Shown here: in pieces, positions 41,829 to 48,841 of the stretch
Layout of the letters: each line of letters opens with the position of its first letter
How positions within the stretch are numbered: the first letter of the stretch is position 1
Assembly (NCBI GenBank): GCA_040902805.1
Contig: JBBDWQ010000019.1
Coordinates: forward strand, 1 to 63,773
Reading direction: 5' to 3'
DNA from: Acidimicrobiales bacterium
GTDB taxonomy: Bacteria; Actinomycetota; Acidimicrobiia; Acidimicrobiales; VFJN01
Length of the DNA stretch: 63,773 nucleotides
Translations under genes and position numbers: made by a program
The notes under the pieces: model-generated
The model's input: the letters and a program-made list of their open reading frames with translations, nothing else
Told to the model about the DNA's origin: nothing
The model's database searches: none

Positions 41829-42035
41829 TCACCTCCGGCAGATGCGGTGGAGGTGGGGGAGTGCGACCACGTGGTCGACGTCGCCCACCACAATCCAAGC
41901 GGAGCGGGTGGTGCACGACAGCAGCGTGCCCTCGATGACTTCGGAAGCTGTCTCGGCGGCCACCTCGGCTCCGACCAGCATCCGCAGGTCGTGCAGCGAA
42001 ACGCTGTCGCCCTCCAGTGCCTCGGCTGCTCCCAC
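41829..42035 (-). CDS. Small hypothetical protein (68 aa), Sm/LSm-like pattern
   Basis: SD GGAGGT 5 nt before the GTG. Helix followed by a beta-strand pattern LRMLVGAEV...VIEGTLLSCT...AWIV...HVVALPHL. Confidence 0.7.
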   Translation of the reverse strand: MGAAEALEGDSVSLHDLRMLVGAEVAAETASEVIEGTLLSCTTRSAWIVVGDVDHVVALPHLHRICRR

Positions 42036-42130
42036 GGGCCACCTCCGTCTGCCGCTGGGCTTGCTCCCCGTCGGTCTACCTGCGGCTCACCTGCCGTTGG
42101 TGGATGCCGACCCCGTTACCATCGGCAGCA

Positions 42131-45100
42131 ATGGCCGACGACTCAACCTCTGATCTCCGTCCGGGCTCGCTGGGACCGAACGCCTGGCTCGTCGATGAGA
42201 TGCATGAGCAGTTCCTCGCAGATCCCGCATCCGTGAGCGAAAGCTGGCGGGACTTCTTCGCTGATTACAAGCGGGACGCCGACCAGCCGGCCGGATCAGC
42301 GCAGTCATCGCCGGGCCCGACCCCAACTCTCGCGATCGTCGCGCCGGCCCCGACCGCCGGGGCGGACGCCCCGGGCGAGCCGATACGTGGTGCGGGCGCC
42401 CGCATCGTCGCCAACATGGAAGCGAGCCTCGGGGTGCCGACCGCGACGAGCTTCCGCATCGTCCCGGCCAAGCTGCTCGAGGTCAACCGGCGGGTGATCA
42501 ACGGTTACCTCGGCCGCACGCGCGGTGGGAAGATCAGCTTCACGCACCTCATCGGCTTCGCCGTCGTGCGTGCCATCCACGACACGGTCCCCGTCATGAA
42601 CCGTTCCTTCGTCGAGGACGCCGAGGGCAAGCCTCGCGTCCTGCAGCACCACCACATCGGGCTGGGGATTGCGGTCGACATCGAAAAGAGCGACGGCACC
42701 CGCACCCTCCTCGTGCCCGTGGTGAAGGACGCCGACACGCTCGACTTCCGTGGCTTCTGGGGTGCGTATGAGGAGCTCATCCGCAAGGTGCGGTCGAACA
42801 AGCTCTCGCCCGACGACTTCGGCGGCATCACGGTGAGCCTCACCAACCCGGGCACGATCGGCACGCTGCAGTCCGTGCCGCGACTCATGCCAGGGCAGGG
42901 ACTGATCGTTGGCGTCGGAAGCCTCGACTACCCAGCTGAGTGGAAGGCCGCGGACCCGGTCACGCTTGCCGACCTCGGCGTGTCGAAGGTCATCACGATC
43001 AGCTCCACCTATGACCACCGGATCATCCAGGGTGCCGAATCGGGCATGTTCCTCAAGCGAGTCGAGGAGCTGTTGCTCGGGGTCGACGGATTCTACGACG
43101 AGGTCTTCCGTGCCCTCGAGGTGCCGTATGAGGCGGTGCAGTGGCGTCGAGACATCAACCCGATCGATCGCGATCAGGCCATGCTCGACAAGCAGATGGC
43201 AGTCGCGAACCTCATCCGCCTCCATCGGGTGCGTGGCCACCTCATCGCTGATCTCGATCCCCTGCGGTGGAAGGAGCCCACCATGCCGGTGGAGCTCGAC
43301 CCCGCCACGTACGGGCTGACGATCTGGGATCTCGATCGCGAGTTCCTCACCGGCGGGCTCGGTGGTCGCGAGCGCTTCGCCCTGGGAGACATCCTCCATG
43401 TGCTGCGCGACGCCTACTGCCGCACGATCGGCATCGAGTACATGCACATCCAGGACCCCGTCGAGCAGCGGTGGATCCAAGACCACGTCGAGGGCGTCTC
43501 ACCCGAGCTCCCCACCGACGACCAGCGCTACATCCTCGAGCGGCTCAACGCGGCCGAGGCCCTCGAGAAGTTCCTGGCCACGAAGTATGTGGGCCAGAAG
43601 CGCTTTGGGCTCGAGGGCGCCGAGTCAGCCATCCCGATTCTCGATGCCATTCTCGAGGCCGCCGCCGACGACGGGCTCGACGGGACGGTGATCGGGATGC
43701 CGCATCGCGGTCGGCTCAACGTCCTCACGAACATCGTCGGCAAGAGCTACGACCAGATATTCAAGGAGTTCGAGGGCCAGGTCGACCCTGACTCGATCCA
43801 GGGCTCGGGTGATGTGAAGTACCACCTCGGGCAGAGCGGCAAGTTCACATCCCGTACCGGCAAGGAGATCTCGATCGAGCTGGCGGCCAACCCCAGTCAC
43901 CTCGAAGCGGTGGACCCTGTGGTTGTGGGCATGGTGCGCGCAATGCAGGACGCGATCAACGACCCTGAGTCGTTCTCGGTGCTCCCGATCCTCATGCACG
44001 GCGACGCGGCGTTCGCTGGCCAGGGCGTGGTGGCCGAGACGCTCAACATGAGCGACATCAAGGGCTATCGCGTGGGCGGCACGATCCACGTCGTGGTCAA
44101 CAACCAGATCGGGTTCACCACCACCCCGGAGTCGGCCCGGACCGGCTACTACTCCACTGACGTCGCCAAGATCATCCAGGCGCCGATCTTCCACGTGAAC
44201 GGGGACGACCCCGAGGCGTGCGTTCGTGTAGCTCGACTGGCCTTTGCGTACCGGCAGCGGTTCCGCAAGGACGTCGTCATCGACATGGTCTGCTATCGGC
44301 GCCATGGCCACAACGAGGGTGACGATCCCAGCTACACGCAGCCGATGATGTACGCAAAGATCGAGGAACGACGGTCGGTGCGCAAGCTCTTCACCGAGTC
44401 GCTCGTCAAGCGGGGCCAGCTCTCGCTCGAAGAGGCCGAGCACGCGCTCGACGACTACCACGCTCGGCTCCAGAACGCGCTCGACGCGACTCGGCAGTCC
44501 GCGCCAGCGGCGCCGAGCGTCGCCAGGCGTCCAGCGCCCGTCGAAGGGGTCCTGCCCGCGATCGAGACCGGCGTCGAGCGTTCCGCGGTGGATCGCATCT
44601 ACGCGGCGCTGTCCACCTTCCCGGACGGCTTCAACGTCCATCCAAAGCTGCTCCGGCAGTTCGATGTCCGCGACAAGATGTGGGCGGAAGGTGAGGTCGA
44701 CTGGGCGCTCGCAGAGGCGATGGCCTACGGCTCGTTGCTTCTCGAGGGCACCGATCTCCGGATCGCGGGTCAGGACACTCGACGTGGCACATTCAGCCAC
44801 CGTCACGCAGTGCTCGTCGACCACACGAATGGCACCGAGCACGCGCCGCTCGCTCACCTGGGTCCCGAGCAGGGCAAGTTCTGGATCTACGACTCGTTGC
44901 TGTCGGAGTACGCGGGGCTTGGCTTTGAGTACGGGTACTCGGTCGTGGCCAAGGAGTCGCTGGTCGTGTGGGAGGCGCAGTTCGGTGACTTCTGGAACGG
45001 CGCGTCCACGATCGTCGACCAGTTCGTGGTGGCGGCCGAGGACAAGTGGAACCAGACCTCAGGCCTCGTCATGTATCTGCCGCACGGGTACGAGGGGCAA

Positions 45101-45724
45101 GGACCGGAGCACTCGTCGGCACGCGTCGAGCGGTTTCTCACCTTGGCGGCGGAGGACAACATCCAGGTCGTGAACTGCACGCAGGCGTCGCAGATCTTCC
45201 ACCTGTTGCGGCGTCAGGTGCGCCGAACTGTGCGCAAGCCGCTCGTGGTGTTCACCCCCAAGTCCGGACTTCGCGCCAAGGCCACTCGATCTGGCGTCGA
45301 GGAGCTGCTGCGGGGGTCGTTCCGTGAGACGATCGACGACCCGCATCCCGGCGATGTCACAGCGGTCCGTCGCATCGTGCTGGCGTCCGGAAAGGTGGGT
45401 CAGGAAGCGCTCGCCGCTCGTGACGACGCCGGTGCCCTGGTCGCTGTCGTCCGGGTCGAGCAGCTGTACCCGTGGCCCGCTGATCAGCTCGATGAGATCG
45501 TCGCCCGGTACCCGCAGGCCTCGGAGATCGTGTGGCTCCAGGAGGAACCGGAGAACATGGGCGCGTGGAACTTCGTCAAGGGCCGTCTCTACGAGCGCTT
45601 CGATGATTCGCACACGATCCGGCGGGTGTCTCGCTTCGAGTCGGGCGCGCCGGCCGCCGGTTCGCATGGAGTGCATGTCCAGGAGCAGGCCGAGCTGATC
45701 GCCAGCGCCCTAACGGTCGGCTGA
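42131..45724 (+). CDS. kgd: Multifunctional 2-oxoglutarate decarboxylase/dehydrogenase (E2-E1 fusion)
   Basis: GPNAWLVDEM, STYDHRIIQGAESG, GMPHRGRLN, HGDAAFAGQG, WEAQFGDF and PHGYEGQGPEHSSAR. Confidence 0.96.
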   Translation: MADDSTSDLRPGSLGPNAWLVDEMHEQFLADPASVSESWRDFFADYKRDADQPAGSAQSSPGPTPTLAIVAPAPTAGADAPGEPIRGAGARIVANMEASLGVPTATSFRIVPAKLLEVNRRVINGYLGRTRGGKISFTHLIGFAVVRAIHDTVPVMNRSFVEDAEGKPRVLQHHHIGLGIAVDIEKSDGTRTLLVPVVKDADTLDFRGFWGAYEELIRKVRSNKLSPDDFGGITVSLTNPGTIGTLQSVPRLMPGQGLIVGVGSLDYPAEWKAADPVTLADLGVSKVITISSTYDHRIIQGAESGMFLKRVEELLLGVDGFYDEVFRALEVPYEAVQWRRDINPIDRDQAMLDKQMAVANLIRLHRVRGHLIADLDPLRWKEPTMPVELDPATYGLTIWDLDREFLTGGLGGRERFALGDILHVLRDAYCRTIGIEYMHIQDPVEQRWIQDHVEGVSPELPTDDQRYILERLNAAEALEKFLATKYVGQKRFGLEGAESAIPILDAILEAAADDGLDGTVIGMPHRGRLNVLTNIVGKSYDQIFKEFEGQVDPDSIQGSGDVKYHLGQSGKFTSRTGKEISIELAANPSHLEAVDPVVVGMVRAMQDAINDPESFSVLPILMHGDAAFAGQGVVAETLNMSDIKGYRVGGTIHVVVNNQIGFTTTPESARTGYYSTDVAKIIQAPIFHVNGDDPEACVRVARLAFAYRQRFRKDVVIDMVCYRRHGHNEGDDPSYTQPMMYAKIEERRSVRKLFTESLVKRGQLSLEEAEHALDDYHARLQNALDATRQSAPAAPSVARRPAPVEGVLPAIETGVERSAVDRIYAALSTFPDGFNVHPKLLRQFDVRDKMWAEGEVDWALAEAMAYGSLLLEGTDLRIAGQDTRRGTFSHRHAVLVDHTNGTEHAPLAHLGPEQGKFWIYDSLLSEYAGLGFEYGYSVVAKESLVVWEAQFGDFWNGASTIVDQFVVAAEDKWNQTSGLVMYLPHGYEGQGPEHSSARVERFLTLAAEDNIQVVNCTQASQIFHLLRRQVRRTVRKPLVVFTPKSGLRAKATRSGVEELLRGSFRETIDDPHPGDVTAVRRIVLASGKVGQEALAARDDAGALVAVVRVEQLYPWPADQLDEIVARYPQASEIVWLQEEPENMGAWNFVKGRLYERFDDSHTIRRVSRFESGAPAAGSHGVHVQEQAELIASALTVG

Positions 45725-45725
45725 G

Positions 45726-45753
45726 CCCCCCTCGCCCTCCCTCCCCTCCCCCC
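45726..45753 (-). other. G-quadruplex-capable tract (five G-runs on the minus strand)
   Basis: Plus strand CCCCCCTCGCCCTCCCTCCCCTCCCCCC, i.e. minus strand G6-A-G4-A-G3-A-G3-CGA-G6. Confidence 0.5.
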
Positions 45754-45756
45754 TAA

Positions 45757-45807
45757 CGAACTCGGGCGGAAAATCCGTCCAGGAGACGGATTTTCCGCCC
45801 GAGAACG
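45757..45807. repeat. REP-like palindrome, copy 1 (51 bp)
   Basis: CTCGGGCGGAAAATCCGTC (45761-45779), CAGGA loop, GACGGATTTTCCGCCCGAG (45785-45803): a perfect 19-bp inverted repeat. Confidence 0.9.
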
Positions 45808-45830
45808 CTTTGACGCGTCGCGCGGTCGGC

Positions 45831-45852
45831 TGTCACAGGTCGCTGGCAGCCT
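45831..45852 (+). promoter_or_regulatory. PafBC/RecA-NDp-type promoter TGTCAC-N10-CAGCCT
   Basis: GCTGTCACAGG is identical to the RecB-nuclease promoter, the spacing is the same, and ATG 45859 lies 6 nt downstream. Confidence 0.6.
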
Positions 45853-45858
45853 GGCCTC

Positions 45859-46794
45859 ATGCGGACCACCGACCACCTGATCCACGACGCTGCTCGCCTC
45901 GGGCTCGTGAGCCGAAGTCGACTGCTCGCCTTGGGGATCTCTGACGAGGAGATCCTCGGGCGGGTGGAGCGCGGCTCGCTCCGCACCGTCCATGCCGGCG
46001 TCTATGCGACCTTTGGGACGCCGCTCGACTACCGGGCCCGGGTGCTCGCCGCGTGCCTCGCTGCCGGTGACGCAGCGGTGGCCTCACACCGGACGGCACT
46101 ATCGATGTGGGGACTGCTCGACGGCGAGCAGCCGATCGACGTGACCTCGCCCCGCCGGTCGCACCCGGTCCCGGGTGGCTTCGTGCTCCACCGGCCCAAT
46201 CAGCTGCGACCCCACGACATCACGGTGAAGCAGCATGTACCGATCACAAACCCCATCCGGTCTCTGCTCGATGCGGGCATCGAGCTGCCTCGTCACGTTG
46301 TAGGCGACTGCATCGAGCGGGCGTTAGTGGCACGACTGGTCAGCGTGAAGGGTCTGCGGGTGATTCTCGCTGAGCTGGGTGGTCGTGGTCGCACGGGCAC
46401 GGCGGCGCTACGTCGACACCTCGACGGTCGCGCGCTGGGTGACCGACGTCCGGAGAGCATGATCGAGCCGCTGATGGCTCGACTCCTCTACGCGGACCTT
46501 GGGCTGGGCCCGATCGAGTATCAGCCGACGCTCGTGCTCGATGGCACGAAGATCAGGCCCGACTTCCTCGTCAGCCGTGCGATGGCCGTGGTCGAGATCG
46601 ACGGCCTGGACGTCCATGCCAGTCGCAAGGCGCTCGACCACGACCTGGCCCGACAGAACTTCCTCGTCCGCCATGGCTATCTCGTGCTTCGCTACACGAC
46701 GACAAGCCTGCGATGTCCGGCCAAGGTCGCAGCGGAGATCGTGGCGGTGTGCAGGGGCCGCGTCGCTGACCTCGAGCGTACGAGCGCCGCATGA
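45859..46794 (+). CDS. AbiEi-like N-terminal domain plus DUF559 (Vsr-like) endonuclease protein
   Basis: GLVSRSRLLALG...RVERGSLRTVHAGVY, AVASHRTAL..WGL and ITNPIRSLLD, then C-terminal RPDF...VVEIDG..H...DLARQNFL...GYLVLRYT. Confidence 0.85.
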   Translation: MRTTDHLIHDAARLGLVSRSRLLALGISDEEILGRVERGSLRTVHAGVYATFGTPLDYRARVLAACLAAGDAAVASHRTALSMWGLLDGEQPIDVTSPRRSHPVPGGFVLHRPNQLRPHDITVKQHVPITNPIRSLLDAGIELPRHVVGDCIERALVARLVSVKGLRVILAELGGRGRTGTAALRRHLDGRALGDRRPESMIEPLMARLLYADLGLGPIEYQPTLVLDGTKIRPDFLVSRAMAVVEIDGLDVHASRKALDHDLARQNFLVRHGYLVLRYTTTSLRCPAKVAAEIVAVCRGRVADLERTSAA

Positions 46795-46808
46795 ACGCCG
46801 CGAATTCC

Positions 46809-46859
46809 CGTTCTCGGGCGGAAAATCCGTCCTGTGGACGGAGGAACCGCCCGAGAACG
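46809..46859. repeat. REP-like palindrome, copy 2 (51 bp)
   Basis: CGTTCTCGGGCGGAAAATCCGTCC-TGT-GGACGGAGGAACCGCCCGAGAACG: 24-bp arms with one 4x4 internal bubble, 42/51 identical to copy 1. Confidence 0.9.
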
Positions 46860-46877
46860 TATGAGAGGAAGATCGGC

Positions 46878-47519
46878 TCAGCCCAGGGGAAAGCCGACGA
46901 CTCCTTCGAGCTGGGTGAGTGCGTCCGTGGGGTCAATGACCTTGATGGTGGTCATGCCCATCGCGGCGGCGGGCTTGAGGTTTACGCCGAGGTCGTCGAG
47001 GAACACGGCCTCGCTCGGCTCGACCCCTGCGAGCTCACACGCGATCTCGTAGAACCGCGGGTCCGGCTTGCGCACACCGACCTTGCTTGACTCCACGATG
47101 TGGTGGAACAGCGCGAACACATCCTGCAGGTGGGCATGGCGCTCGTCGGTGGCTGGCCCAGCGTGGGGCGCCCAGTTGTTGGTCAGACAGGCCGTCACCA
47201 GTCGCTCGCGGCACCGTCGGACGGCCTCCACCATCGCTGGTCGGATCTCGCCGGAGAGCAGCGGCATCAGATCTCGAGCCGACATCACCTGACCGGCCGC
47301 CAGGCATTCGGCCTCGAAGAGGTCGCAGAATGCGTCAAAGGTGACACTGCTGCGCTCGAACTGAGCCCAGGCGTTGGTGTCGGGGTTGGTGGCGTTGATG
47401 GTTCGGATGAAGTCACGCGGGAGACCGCTGCGCTCCTCGAAGCGGTTGAACGCCTCGAACGGACTGGAGAGGATGACGCCTCCGAAGTCGAAGAACGCCG
47501 CTTTGATCGTCTCGCTCAT
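46878..47519 (-). CDS. HAD-IA family hydrolase (epoxide hydrolase N-terminal-like)
   Basis: FFDFGGV, LTNN, RKPDPRFY and FLDDLGVNLKPA. Confidence 0.9.
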   Translation of the reverse strand: MSETIKAAFFDFGGVILSSPFEAFNRFEERSGLPRDFIRTINATNPDTNAWAQFERSSVTFDAFCDLFEAECLAAGQVMSARDLMPLLSGEIRPAMVEAVRRCRERLVTACLTNNWAPHAGPATDERHAHLQDVFALFHHIVESSKVGVRKPDPRFYEIACELAGVEPSEAVFLDDLGVNLKPAAAMGMTTIKVIDPTDALTQLEGVVGFPLG

Positions 47520-48841
47520 GAGGCGAGCAGATCCTTGGCGAGGACTTCCCACATCTCAGTGGACAGGCGCAGGGACTCCACGTCAATGCGCTCGTCGTCC
47601 CCGTGAAACATTGTGCCGTAGTCCTCGAATGACAGGTTCGTGGAGAACAGCCCGAACCCGTACGACGTGGTGCCGAGCCGCCGGAAGAACCGCGCATCGG
47701 TGGCGCCGACGGTCATGTACGGGACCAGCTTGGAGCCGTTGTAGAACGATTGGGTGATGCGGGCGAGCGACTCCCACAGTGGCGTGTCGGTCGGCGACTC
47801 TGTGGACGGATCGTCGTGCGATCCGATGAGCTCAACCTTCGACGCGAGGTCTCCGAGGGCTTCGTCGAGCATGGCTCGGACCTCTGCCTCCCCGTGCCCG
47901 GGCAACGTCCGGATGTCGATCTGCAGGTCGACGCGGTCGGGGATGACGTTGATCTTCGTCCCGCCGTGAACGATCGTCGGAGCGAACGTCGTGTGTGTGC
48001 ACGCGTGGAACTGGCGGCCCATTCCGGCCGGAAGCGCGTCGCACGCCCCAAGAAACTTTTCCGGGTCGAGAAGCGGGCCGACGAGCTCCTCGCCGTACTC
48101 CATGCCCTCGAGAAAGCGACGCCACACGTCGTGGATCTCGGTGCGCGGCTGATACTCCGCGATGCGCTGAACAACGCGCGCCGCGGTCACCAGTGCGTTG
48201 TCTGTCTTGTAAGGCTGTGACCCATGTCCGGGCGTGCCGCTGACGCGAAGCTGTGCCCAGTGGCTGCCCTTCTCGGCGACGATCACGGGCAGCTTCAGCC
48301 CTGTCGGACTCGGGATGGGGATGCCGCCGGACTCGGTGATGACGTAGTCCGCCCGCACGGCATCGGCCTCGTGGGCCACGAGGTGCTCTGCGCCCATCGA
48401 GCCCAGCGCTTCCTCGTCCGCGACGGCCAGGTAGATCAGGGTCCCGCGTGGCCGAAAACCGCCTCTGGCCAGGCGTTTTGTGGCGACAGCCATCGACGCC
48501 GTGAGGTTCAGCATGTCGACGGCGCCTCGACCCCAGACCTCGCCGTCGATGAGCTCGCCGCCGAAGGGATCGTGCGACCAGCCCTCGGGGTTCACCGGCA
48601 CGACATCGGTGTGTCCCATGAGTAGCAGCGTCGGCGCGTCGGGATCGGAGCCTTCGATGCGCGCGACAACGCTTGTGCGCCCGGGCGCCGGCTCGTAGCG
48701 CTCGATCTCGACGCCGTCGCCGTTGAGGTATGACTCGAGCAGATCCGCGCTGCGAACCTCTTGTCCTGACTCCGCGGTGCCGTCGTTGACGCACGCGTTG
48801 CGGATGAGGTGCTGCAAAAGATCGGTGACCTCGTCGCTCAT
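47516..48841 (-). CDS. M20/M25/M40 family metallopeptidase
   Basis: GHTDVVP, WGRGAVDM, ADEE, GHGS and HGDDERI. Confidence 0.92.
   Translation of the reverse strand: MSDEVTDLLQHLIRNACVNDGTAESGQEVRSADLLESYLNGDGVEIERYEPAPGRTSVVARIEGSDPDAPTLLLMGHTDVVPVNPEGWSHDPFGGELIDGEVWGRGAVDMLNLTASMAVATKRLARGGFRPRGTLIYLAVADEEALGSMGAEHLVAHEADAVRADYVITESGGIPIPSPTGLKLPVIVAEKGSHWAQLRVSGTPGHGSQPYKTDNALVTAARVVQRIAEYQPRTEIHDVWRRFLEGMEYGEELVGPLLDPEKFLGACDALPAGMGRQFHACTHTTFAPTIVHGGTKINVIPDRVDLQIDIRTLPGHGEAEVRAMLDEALGDLASKVELIGSHDDPSTESPTDTPLWESLARITQSFYNGSKLVPYMTVGATDARFFRRLGTTSYGFGLFSTNLSFEDYGTMFHGDDERIDVESLRLSTEMWEVLAKDLLAS

Follow-up and report, generated by a model that had tools for sequence, protein, structure and literature searches.

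Organization of the locus

The DNA analyzed here (the window; 63,773 nt, contig C19:1-63773) belongs to an Acidimicrobiales assembly of 2.56 Mb in 61 contigs (67.5% G+C, 82% completeness; genome G000 below), and its feature of interest is a gene for a predicted AbiEi-like, Vsr-like (DUF559) nuclease that is framed by two related palindromes and lies between kgd and a HAD-family hydrolase gene. The palindromes are members of a repeat family, family A, with further copies elsewhere in the genome. The features of the locus are as follows.

42017..45724, + strand: kgd, 2-oxoglutarate dehydrogenase E1 with an E2-like domain (Pfam E1_dh 1.3e-55, Transket_pyr, 2-oxoacid_dh, OxoGdeHyase_C); left boundary of the insertion site
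45757..45807, no strand: palindrome copy 1, family A; 35 nt past the kgd stop; covariance model R1 66 bits, E 4.9e-16
45831..45852, + strand: putative PafBC-type promoter motif, TGTCAC-N10-CAGCCT, read from the sequence; ends 6 nt before the ATG
45859..46794, + strand: gene for a predicted AbiEi-like plus Vsr/EDxHD-type PD-(D/E)xK nuclease, 311 amino acids (aa); AbiEi-like at ~1-200, nuclease domain at ~205-311
46809..46859, no strand: palindrome copy 2, family A; 14 nt past the nuclease stop and 18 nt before the HAD stop; R1 66.3 bits, E 3.8e-16
46878..47552, - strand: HAD-family hydrolase gene, right boundary (Pfam Hydrolase 8.2e-14)

An earlier note on this DNA, made from the letters alone, had described two 51-nt hairpins that match at 42 of 51 positions, and both the coordinates and the identity are correct (85% identity over 47 nt, to which four left-flank bases are added). 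Arm comparison and folding also confirm its account of their structures. Copy 1 has a perfect 19-bp stem (arms 45761-45779 and 45785-45803, 100% complementary, with a loop of 5 nt), and copy 2 has 24-nt arms (46809-46832 and 46836-46859, 83% complementary) that fold into a 13-bp outer stem, a 4x4 internal loop, and a 7-bp inner stem. As RNA, both hairpins reach -38.8 to -44.5 kcal/mol on either strand (z -6.9 to -8.7), values equaled by none of 200 shuffles, and the 19-mer arm occurs three times in the window against 0.05 expected, a count that none of 100 shuffles attained. A search of positions 45600-47000 against Rfam returned no family near its gathering threshold, the best being miRNA and sRNA models at 12.8 to 23.7 bits against cut-offs of 43 to 137.

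Analysis of open reading frames (ORFs) together with Pfam agrees with the same note that a single gene is enclosed between kgd and the HAD gene, and no further ORF of at least 80 aa fits in the 1.15-kb interval. Annotation of the genes next to the nuclease gene (kgd and HAD) identifies no AbiEii partner and no transposase, as the note had it, and no methyltransferase gene.

The predicted nuclease and its putative promoter

The 311-aa protein matches Pfam DUF559 (E 2e-6, 28.1 bits, cut-off 20.6) and, below cut-off, AbiEi_4 (E 0.01); PADLOC AbiEi models match residues 14-182 (E 3.8e-24), and NCBIfam has no family for it. A profile of 64 homologs matches 3HRL (DUF559, E 8e-10), 3R3P (I-Bth0305I, E 2.7e-5), AbiGI (E 0.0057), and 6Y8Q (AbiEi, E 0.007). 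With the AlphaFold (AF2) model (pLDDT 91.7, pTM 0.80) as query, Foldseek aligns the first two thirds with AbiEi 6Y8Q (E 7.4e-6, 204 columns) and Rv2827c (1ZEL), and the last ~100 residues with 3R3P (TMt 0.68-0.70), 3HRL (TMt 0.78), and Vsr. These profile, PADLOC, and predicted-structure matches support the AbiEi-like N terminus and Vsr-like DUF559 C terminus that had been proposed from the sequence, and the protein is predicted to be an AbiEi-like DNA-binding module fused to a Vsr/EDxHD-type PD-(D/E)xK nuclease. Residues D235, E246, D248, G249, H253, D262, and R265 are each conserved in at least 90% of the 64 homologs, a set that fits an active Vsr/EDxHD-type site (PMC3239194).

The consensus reported for PafBC, tGTCgg(N10)tA(N3)T, replaces the -35 element (PMC8635444), and the motif TGTCAC-N10-CAGCCT upstream of the nuclease gene fits it, in keeping with the PafBC-type promoter suggested before; it recurs with equal spacing in all eight upstream regions read (the window, G012, G018, G007, G009, G006, G004, and G041), although the motif itself is low in information. 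Because the motif ends 6 nt from the ATG, it would imply a leaderless transcript. The recA gene of this genome is cut off at a contig start, with its promoter outside the assembly.

Conserved association of the nuclease gene with palindromes

The nuclease gene and its palindromes are associated, the association is conserved at a fixed locus across species, and the palindromes diverge with the protein. Orthologs of the family A nuclease (62-80% identity) are present in 10 of 29 congeners, and at least one adjacent palindrome accompanies the gene in 10 of the 11 ortholog loci. Seven have palindromes on both sides (the window, G012, G019, G006, G018, G007, and G005), and three have only the upstream palindrome as judged by pattern and model (G029, G023, and G009), with degenerate downstream remnants visible by eye in G023 and G009; at the G004 ortholog, a degenerate remnant downstream is all that is seen. 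In their inner sequence, the flanking copies match the dispersed copies of the same species and not the orthologous copy of other species, which points to homogenization within each genome.

The association extends beyond the genus. In G041, from another family of the same order, a 53%-identical homolog (Pfam AbiEi_4, E 1e-8) lies between SDR and DHDPS genes, is framed by two ~94%-identical related palindromes (GTTCTCGGCGGATCC...GGATCCGCCGAGAAG), and has the TGTCAC promoter motif. A broader set comprised 70 homolog loci (27-80% identity) in 40 genomes, for which the controls were genes of 200-450 aa from the own genome, G000. With gapped local alignment at a score of at least 25, the upstream and downstream flanks share a repeat in 36 of 66 homolog loci compared with 1 of 915 controls, the one being the window gene itself; at a score of at least 20 the counts are 43 of 66 and 5 of 915, and the top two controls are the window gene and moeA. 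The gapped count omits L024, L030, and L148, which gave no clean ORF or match, and L039, whose flank is short (its two palindromes are identical). Ungapped scoring, for which one of the 70 loci had no tblastn match, gives much the same picture (35 of 69 loci against 1 of 910 controls). A strict hairpin finder reported hairpins on both sides in 10 of 67 loci; it was judged too strict and was replaced by the gapped flank alignment.

The flank repeats are palindromes of ~50-60 nt, different for each paralog and in some cases present as doublets. Protein identity and palindrome similarity are correlated across 595 pairs from 35 loci (Spearman 0.26, reached in 0 of 2,000 label permutations), a value that is indicative only, since related sequences are non-independent. 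The earlier note had anticipated that palindromes would be enriched at DUF559 genes, that orthologs would keep them, and that proteins and palindromes would vary together; the first two expectations are borne out by the counts above, and the third is borne out indicatively.

The units are very compact (~1.05-1.15 kb), with the stop codon either within the downstream palindrome (G041, L031, and L146) or 1-20 nt ahead of it, and in the homolog alignment many of the proteins end in ...AA directly before the stop.

Family A palindromes across the genome

Family A has 16 full copies in the own genome, two at the nuclease gene and 14 elsewhere. They have in common a 45-nt T...A core with the consensus cgTTCTCGGGCGG-N5-CCGTC-N5-GACGG-N5-CCGCCCGAGAAcg, in which the outer 13 bp are nearly invariant; variation is found in the A/T-rich segments of 5 nt and in the inner stem, and in several copies the two arms are of different inner types. 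When 46 copies from 13 genomes are aligned, pairing holds for 83% of cells, compared with 35-46% in slid controls, 10 of 23 pairs change on both sides, and covariation is 0.203 versus 0.107 when shuffled (0 of 500 shuffles reach it); the hairpin is conserved by compensatory change. The strict family A pattern is found in 11 of 29 congeners and in none of 31 genomes outside the genus, and the covariance model matches in 20 of 29 congeners, with 1-55 matches each, counting both strands.

By ORF analysis and Pfam, a stop codon precedes 15 of the 16 copies by 4-35 nt, and these copies occupy tandem or convergent gaps; the sole exception is a copy between the divergent rpsL and carbonic anhydrase genes. 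Fourteen copies are beside ordinary housekeeping genes, and the neighbors include gcvP, argS, cysS/P450, ilvD/gatB, hemC/cobA-hemD, glgP/galK, and an ABC-F/fucosidase pair. Two of the copies bracket moeA, in the order moaA, palindrome, moeA, palindrome, galU-like gene, so bracketing is by itself not diagnostic and is not special to the nuclease gene. For the copy at C35:22147 the distance from stop to palindrome is not measurable, as a run of Ns interrupts gatB at ~22.6-23.7 kb of C35. Some copies (C37:16385, C12:9014, C54:40256, and, in the window, 45725-45756) have a C-rich left and a G-rich right flank (CCCCACC...GGTGGGG); judging from these letters, either the inserted unit would be longer than 51 nt or the palindromes would land in loops of pre-existing hairpins.

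Families B and C

The own genome carries two further palindrome families. The earlier note had supposed that copies of the window's palindrome might cluster near other AbiEi-DUF559 paralogs, and this is not the case: the only other DUF559 gene of the genome, on contig C43, is framed by palindromes of family C, each paralog having its own family. Family C (GAGGTTSGGGGCATGG...CCATGCCCCSAACCTC) has 11 full sites, and the copies at C43:11055 and C43:12249 frame this gene (C43:11055-12297; L016:1421-2663). The gene is frameshifted in at least two frames, with AbiEi_4 (E 0.0023) and DUF559 (E 4e-4) matches in different frames; the break reflects either decay of the unit or an error in assembly. The family C half-site also forms head-to-tail arrays with a ~61-nt period and up to 4-5 units in G008, G017, G015, and G011 (G008:C62:4500-4757; G017:C4:2449582-2450797), which suggests that such palindromes amplify in tandem as well.

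Family B (~63 nt, CAACCAACGTCTGTGAA...TTCACAGACGTTGGTTG) has 46 full sites in the own genome, all outside the window (for example C12:157045, C15:18324, and C41:36509), and its exact half-site is abundant only in G000 (83 matches), G029 (107), and G023 (137). The sites lie a median of 6 nt past stop codons and are enriched in convergent gaps: those that could be classified split into 16 convergent, 11 tandem, and 3 divergent, compared with 205, 642, and 202, respectively, among all gaps of the genome. In G023 a family B nuclease is bracketed by family B palindromes, and orthologs of this nuclease (50-69% identity) are present in 18 further congeners; of the 12 whose flanks were scored, nine share a diverged 'TCTG'-type palindrome and three (G029, G013, and G003) have none. 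Pairs of family B palindromes 0.8-1.9 kb apart in the own genome were considered as possible sites of such a nuclease and rejected, the enclosed genes being TetR, enoyl-CoA hydratase, TypA/BipA, and SnoaL.

Empty sites and palindrome-only insertions in relatives

Orthologs of kgd are found in 27 of 29 congeners. At 10 of the 28 kgd loci, kgd and HAD are directly convergent with no palindrome or cassette between them (G011, G027, G022, G020, G014, G001, G026, G024, G016, and G015), and the empty site that the earlier note foresaw in relatives thus exists. Seven other genomes have unrelated inserts at this position (G025, G028, G010, G008, G029, G004, and G002), and the kgd-HAD junction is an insertion hot spot. 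The inserts include a ~1.3-kb unrelated ORF in G025, G028, and G010 (L071, L079, and L085), another common to G008 and G029 (L072 and L067), a third in G004 (L076), and, in the G002 gap (L082), a different palindrome. In two few-contig assemblies kgd has an in-frame TGA or is split (G017:C4:1237922-1239116 and G015:C1:1104205-1105302); long-read frameshift errors are the probable cause of these breaks, and claims of absence in those two genomes call for caution.

Solo palindromes insert on their own between conserved genes, as is seen at moeA. The order moaA-moeA-galU is kept in all 26 genomes with a moeA match, the own genome included (the G012 contig ends before galU). Palindromes occupy both the moaA-moeA and moeA-galU gaps in G000, G023, and G021, the moaA-moeA gap only in G009 and G017, and neither gap in the remaining genomes; in basal species the moeA-galU gaps measure -1 to 16 nt. 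Gaps just after genes are repeatedly colonized by differing palindrome families. Other species-specific palindromes fill these two gaps in G003, G015, G025, G018, and G020 (L108, L112, L111, L120, and L115), examples being of the type GAGGCAATG...CATTGCCTC in G003 and G015 and of the type GTTCTGTGAAC in G020.

In four runs of sediment metagenomes, all from one study, the stretch is present as contigs, and these pass through both palindromes; loose contig ends at 45761-45807 derive from other palindrome loci. Among the public runs listed as containing the stretch, none is an RNA run, and the contigs bear neither on expression nor on excision.

Comparison with known systems

The organization is similar to that of repetitive extragenic palindromic (REP) sequences and REPINs with their REP-associated tyrosine transposases (RAYTs), the 'REPtrons' of Proteobacteria, as far as these are described in PMC3116915, PMC3337134, 10.1101/2022.05.22.493013, and 10.1101/119735. 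In both, a single-copy enzyme gene is flanked by cognate palindromes, the palindromes are dispersed in tens of intergenic copies and partly form doublets, vertical inheritance keeps gene and repeats at a fixed locus, and each enzyme paralog has its own repeat family. Here a single-copy gene with flanking and dispersed cognate palindromes is present for family A and for family C (the C43 gene), whereas the flanked gene does not code for an HUH Y1 transposase. The enzyme is instead predicted to be AbiEi-like with a Vsr/EDxHD-type PD-(D/E)xK domain, and the genome has no Y1_Tnp. Further differences are that the host is a member of the Acidimicrobiia, that copy numbers are lower (4-75 per genome), and that the palindrome, ~50 bp in length, has outer arms that are conserved.

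The N-terminal ~200 residues have the predicted fold of AbiEi, including the winged helix-turn-helix at its N terminus, as in the antitoxins of the type IV AbiE toxin-antitoxin systems (Streptococcus agalactiae 6Y8Q; Rv2827c 1ZEL). AbiEi is reported to repress its own promoter and operon via a 49-bp imperfect palindrome with 23-bp arms 3 nt apart, in which 11-bp perfect outer repeats are separated by 27 bp (PMC3985639), and the family A palindrome, with 13-bp conserved outer repeats 25 bp apart, has the same geometry. Unlike AbiE, the gene has no adjacent AbiEii (DUF1814 nucleotidyltransferase) toxin partner, a nuclease is fused at the C terminus, and the palindrome is found on both sides and genome-wide.

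The C-terminal domain matches the EDxHD/Vsr-like proteins (I-Bth0305I 3R3P, Vsr, and DUF559 3HRL), and by sequence and predicted structure it has a Vsr-like fold with conserved acidic and histidine active-site residues. I-Bth0305I, described as a Vsr-like EDxHD homing endonuclease, likewise joins an N-terminal helix-turn-helix-type DNA-binding region to the nuclease domain (PMC3239194). Unlike these enzymes, the gene here is outside any intron or intein, its DNA-binding module is AbiEi-like and not NUMOD, the palindromes framing the gene are also found on their own, and no Dcm-type cytosine methyltransferase, the partner in Vsr very-short-patch repair of T:G mismatches, is adjacent.

IS200/IS605-type elements and attC cassettes also present a gene bounded by hairpin sites whose structure is kept more than their inner sequence, but this locus has no TnpA(Y1), TnpB, or integrase and consists of a single gene, not an array. 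Whereas attC sites are ordered AAC...GTT, the full palindromes here are ordered GTT...AAC, and an attC/integron reading was rejected on account of this polarity and the lack of an array.

Interpretation and alternatives

On balance, we favor a REP/RAYT-like partnership built on a non-HUH nuclease, in which a palindrome-framed AbiEi-DUF559 gene is paired with a dispersed family of cognate ~50-bp REP-like palindromes, the arrangement being widespread in Actinomycetota. A REP/RAYT-like organization with an unrelated enzyme is well supported at the level of association, and of the nuclease-plus-cognate-palindrome unit that the earlier note proposed, this is the part that stands: the association is conserved and non-random (10 of 11 ortholog loci, and 36 of 66 homolog loci versus 1 of 915 controls). 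The mechanism is one that we infer. Operator-like geometry together with the AbiEi fold suggests that the N-terminal module reads the outer arms, and it would bind the outer inverted repeats (13 bp, 25 bp apart) much as AbiEi binds its 49-bp operator. The palindrome copy or copies adjacent to the gene would then mediate autorepression, and each dispersed copy would act as a docking site that tethers the fused nuclease. The nuclease would nick or cut at the palindromes, and host repair or replication would copy, homogenize, or move them, with the PafBC-type promoter placing nuclease expression in the DNA damage response. Nicking followed by repair copying would account for the chimeric arms and for the inner sequences that, at orthologous sites, are specific to each species. 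Going further, AbiEi-DUF559 proteins might constitute a new class of repeat-partner enzymes that read outer arms and nick under PafBC control while repair homogenizes the repeats, forming a REP-type system independent of HUH transposases; we put this forward tentatively and regard it as somewhat doubtful.

Several observations weigh against such a partnership. PD-(D/E)xK nucleases hydrolyze DNA, and we know of no covalent HUH-type strand-transfer intermediates for them, so copying would have to be borrowed from the host, a step that we wholly infer. Palindromes and nucleases do not always coincide: G017 (6 contigs) has 28 model matches and ~14 family A sites and no ortholog, its best match being 34% identical; G021 (47 model matches) and G013 (23) also have no ortholog, in assemblies that are fragmented or 69% complete; the own genome has 46 family B sites, and a protein search of its 82%-complete assembly found no family B nuclease at E of 1e-40 or below; and G004 has an ortholog and no covariance-model match. 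Thirty of the 66 homolog loci show no common flank repeat at a score of at least 25, the co-occurrence of orthologs and palindromes within the genus is inseparable from shared descent, and the public contigs of the four sediment runs include none that joins kgd to HAD without the cassette. The absences are to be read with the incompleteness of metagenome-assembled genomes (MAGs) in mind, as assemblies easily lose a ~1.1-kb gene that lies between repeats; contig G001:C350 is a unit of this kind, 1898 nt long, and the G021 kgd contig ends 117 nt past kgd.

The palindrome-gene-palindrome block could itself be mobile, as a free-standing homing-type cassette whose nuclease cuts cognate palindromes or naive intergenic sites and which is copied in whole by repair, with the palindromes as short homology; solo palindromes would be landing pads or deletion footprints, like solo long terminal repeats. 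The contexts of the gene do vary (kgd-HAD in the genus, SDR-DHDPS in G041, and a different left neighbor in G029), the gene is free-standing and intergenic, kgd-HAD sites are empty in 10 congeners, G041 has flanking copies that are direct repeats of ~94% identity, and many solo palindromes combine arms of two inner-stem types, as expected from exchange at the center. The homing endonuclease I-Bth0305I (PMC3239194) is also among the closest solved relatives of the nuclease. We nevertheless consider this cassette unlikely, because the family A gene is single copy at one conserved locus in at least eight species, as against 4-28 palindrome sites per genome, and because the palindrome-bearing moeA gaps are without a cassette in all 26 genomes examined, which makes 16-28 independent cassette-insertion footprints per genome unlikely. 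The tandem palindrome arrays with their 61-nt period are not footprints, and the absence of a cassette-free variant from the sediment contigs counts against homing too.

Alternatively, the palindromes could be ordinary cis elements, such as bidirectional terminators, mRNA stabilizers, or an AbiEi-type operator, that are spread by slippage, gene conversion, or an unknown transposase, with the nuclease acting in repair or defense. The closeness of family A copies to a preceding stop codon (4-35 nt in 15 of 16), the skew of family B toward convergent gaps (16 convergent, 11 tandem, and 3 divergent, versus 205, 642, and 202 genome-wide), the persistence of palindrome families where no nuclease was found, and the reported repression by AbiEi of its own promoter through a 49-bp palindrome (PMC3985639) all speak for this view. 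An operator, however, would account for the upstream copy and not for the matching downstream copy in 36 of 66 loci, nor would it explain why the same protein-specific outer repeats recur in dozens of dispersed copies. Terminators, for their part, need no 13 invariant outer bp that hold genus-wide and are replaced with each nuclease paralog, and the hairpins have no clear T-run. A purely cis-acting role is in our estimate improbable.

That the palindromes are classical REPs mobilized by a RAYT (an HUH Y1 transposase) or an IS-encoded enzyme, with the nuclease gene a passenger between two of them, is very improbable indeed: their size, hairpin shape, intergenic 3' position, occasional doublets, and tandem arrays are all REP-like, but Y1_Tnp (PF01797) is absent from the own genome and present in only 2 of 29 congeners (G017 and G008), no palindrome lies within 1.5 kb of either Y1_Tnp locus, G008 has no family A palindrome at all, and framing by a cognate family of its own, seen at 36 of 66 independent loci, would not be found for a passenger. 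With PF01797 missing here and in 27 of 29 congeners, the earlier statement that no RAYT or transposase accounts for the repeats holds.

Significance

A literature search over titles and the beginnings of abstracts, with bioRxiv supplements and subscription journals outside its range, found no published description of palindrome-framed DUF559 genes. To our knowledge, REP/REPIN-RAYT systems are the only described short bacterial repeats that are kept long term by a single-copy partner enzyme, and the partners known so far are all HUH transposases. The locus adds the deep-branching class Acidimicrobiia, three co-resident palindrome families, clean empty sites, and palindrome-only insertions. If the favored partnership is correct, the repeat-partner lifestyle would have evolved more than once, in this instance in a system that works by hydrolytic nicking and repair and not by transposition, and the conserved PafBC-type promoter would tie repeat dynamics to the DNA damage response. 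It would also account for the intergenic palindrome families, specific to each species, at which MAG assemblies break, and would offer a source of sequence-specific reader-plus-nickase modules, each with a known 50-bp target. For the Actinomycetota, it would give a function to a very large group of genes annotated as 'DUF559 / AbiEi antitoxin domain', of which there are several per genome.

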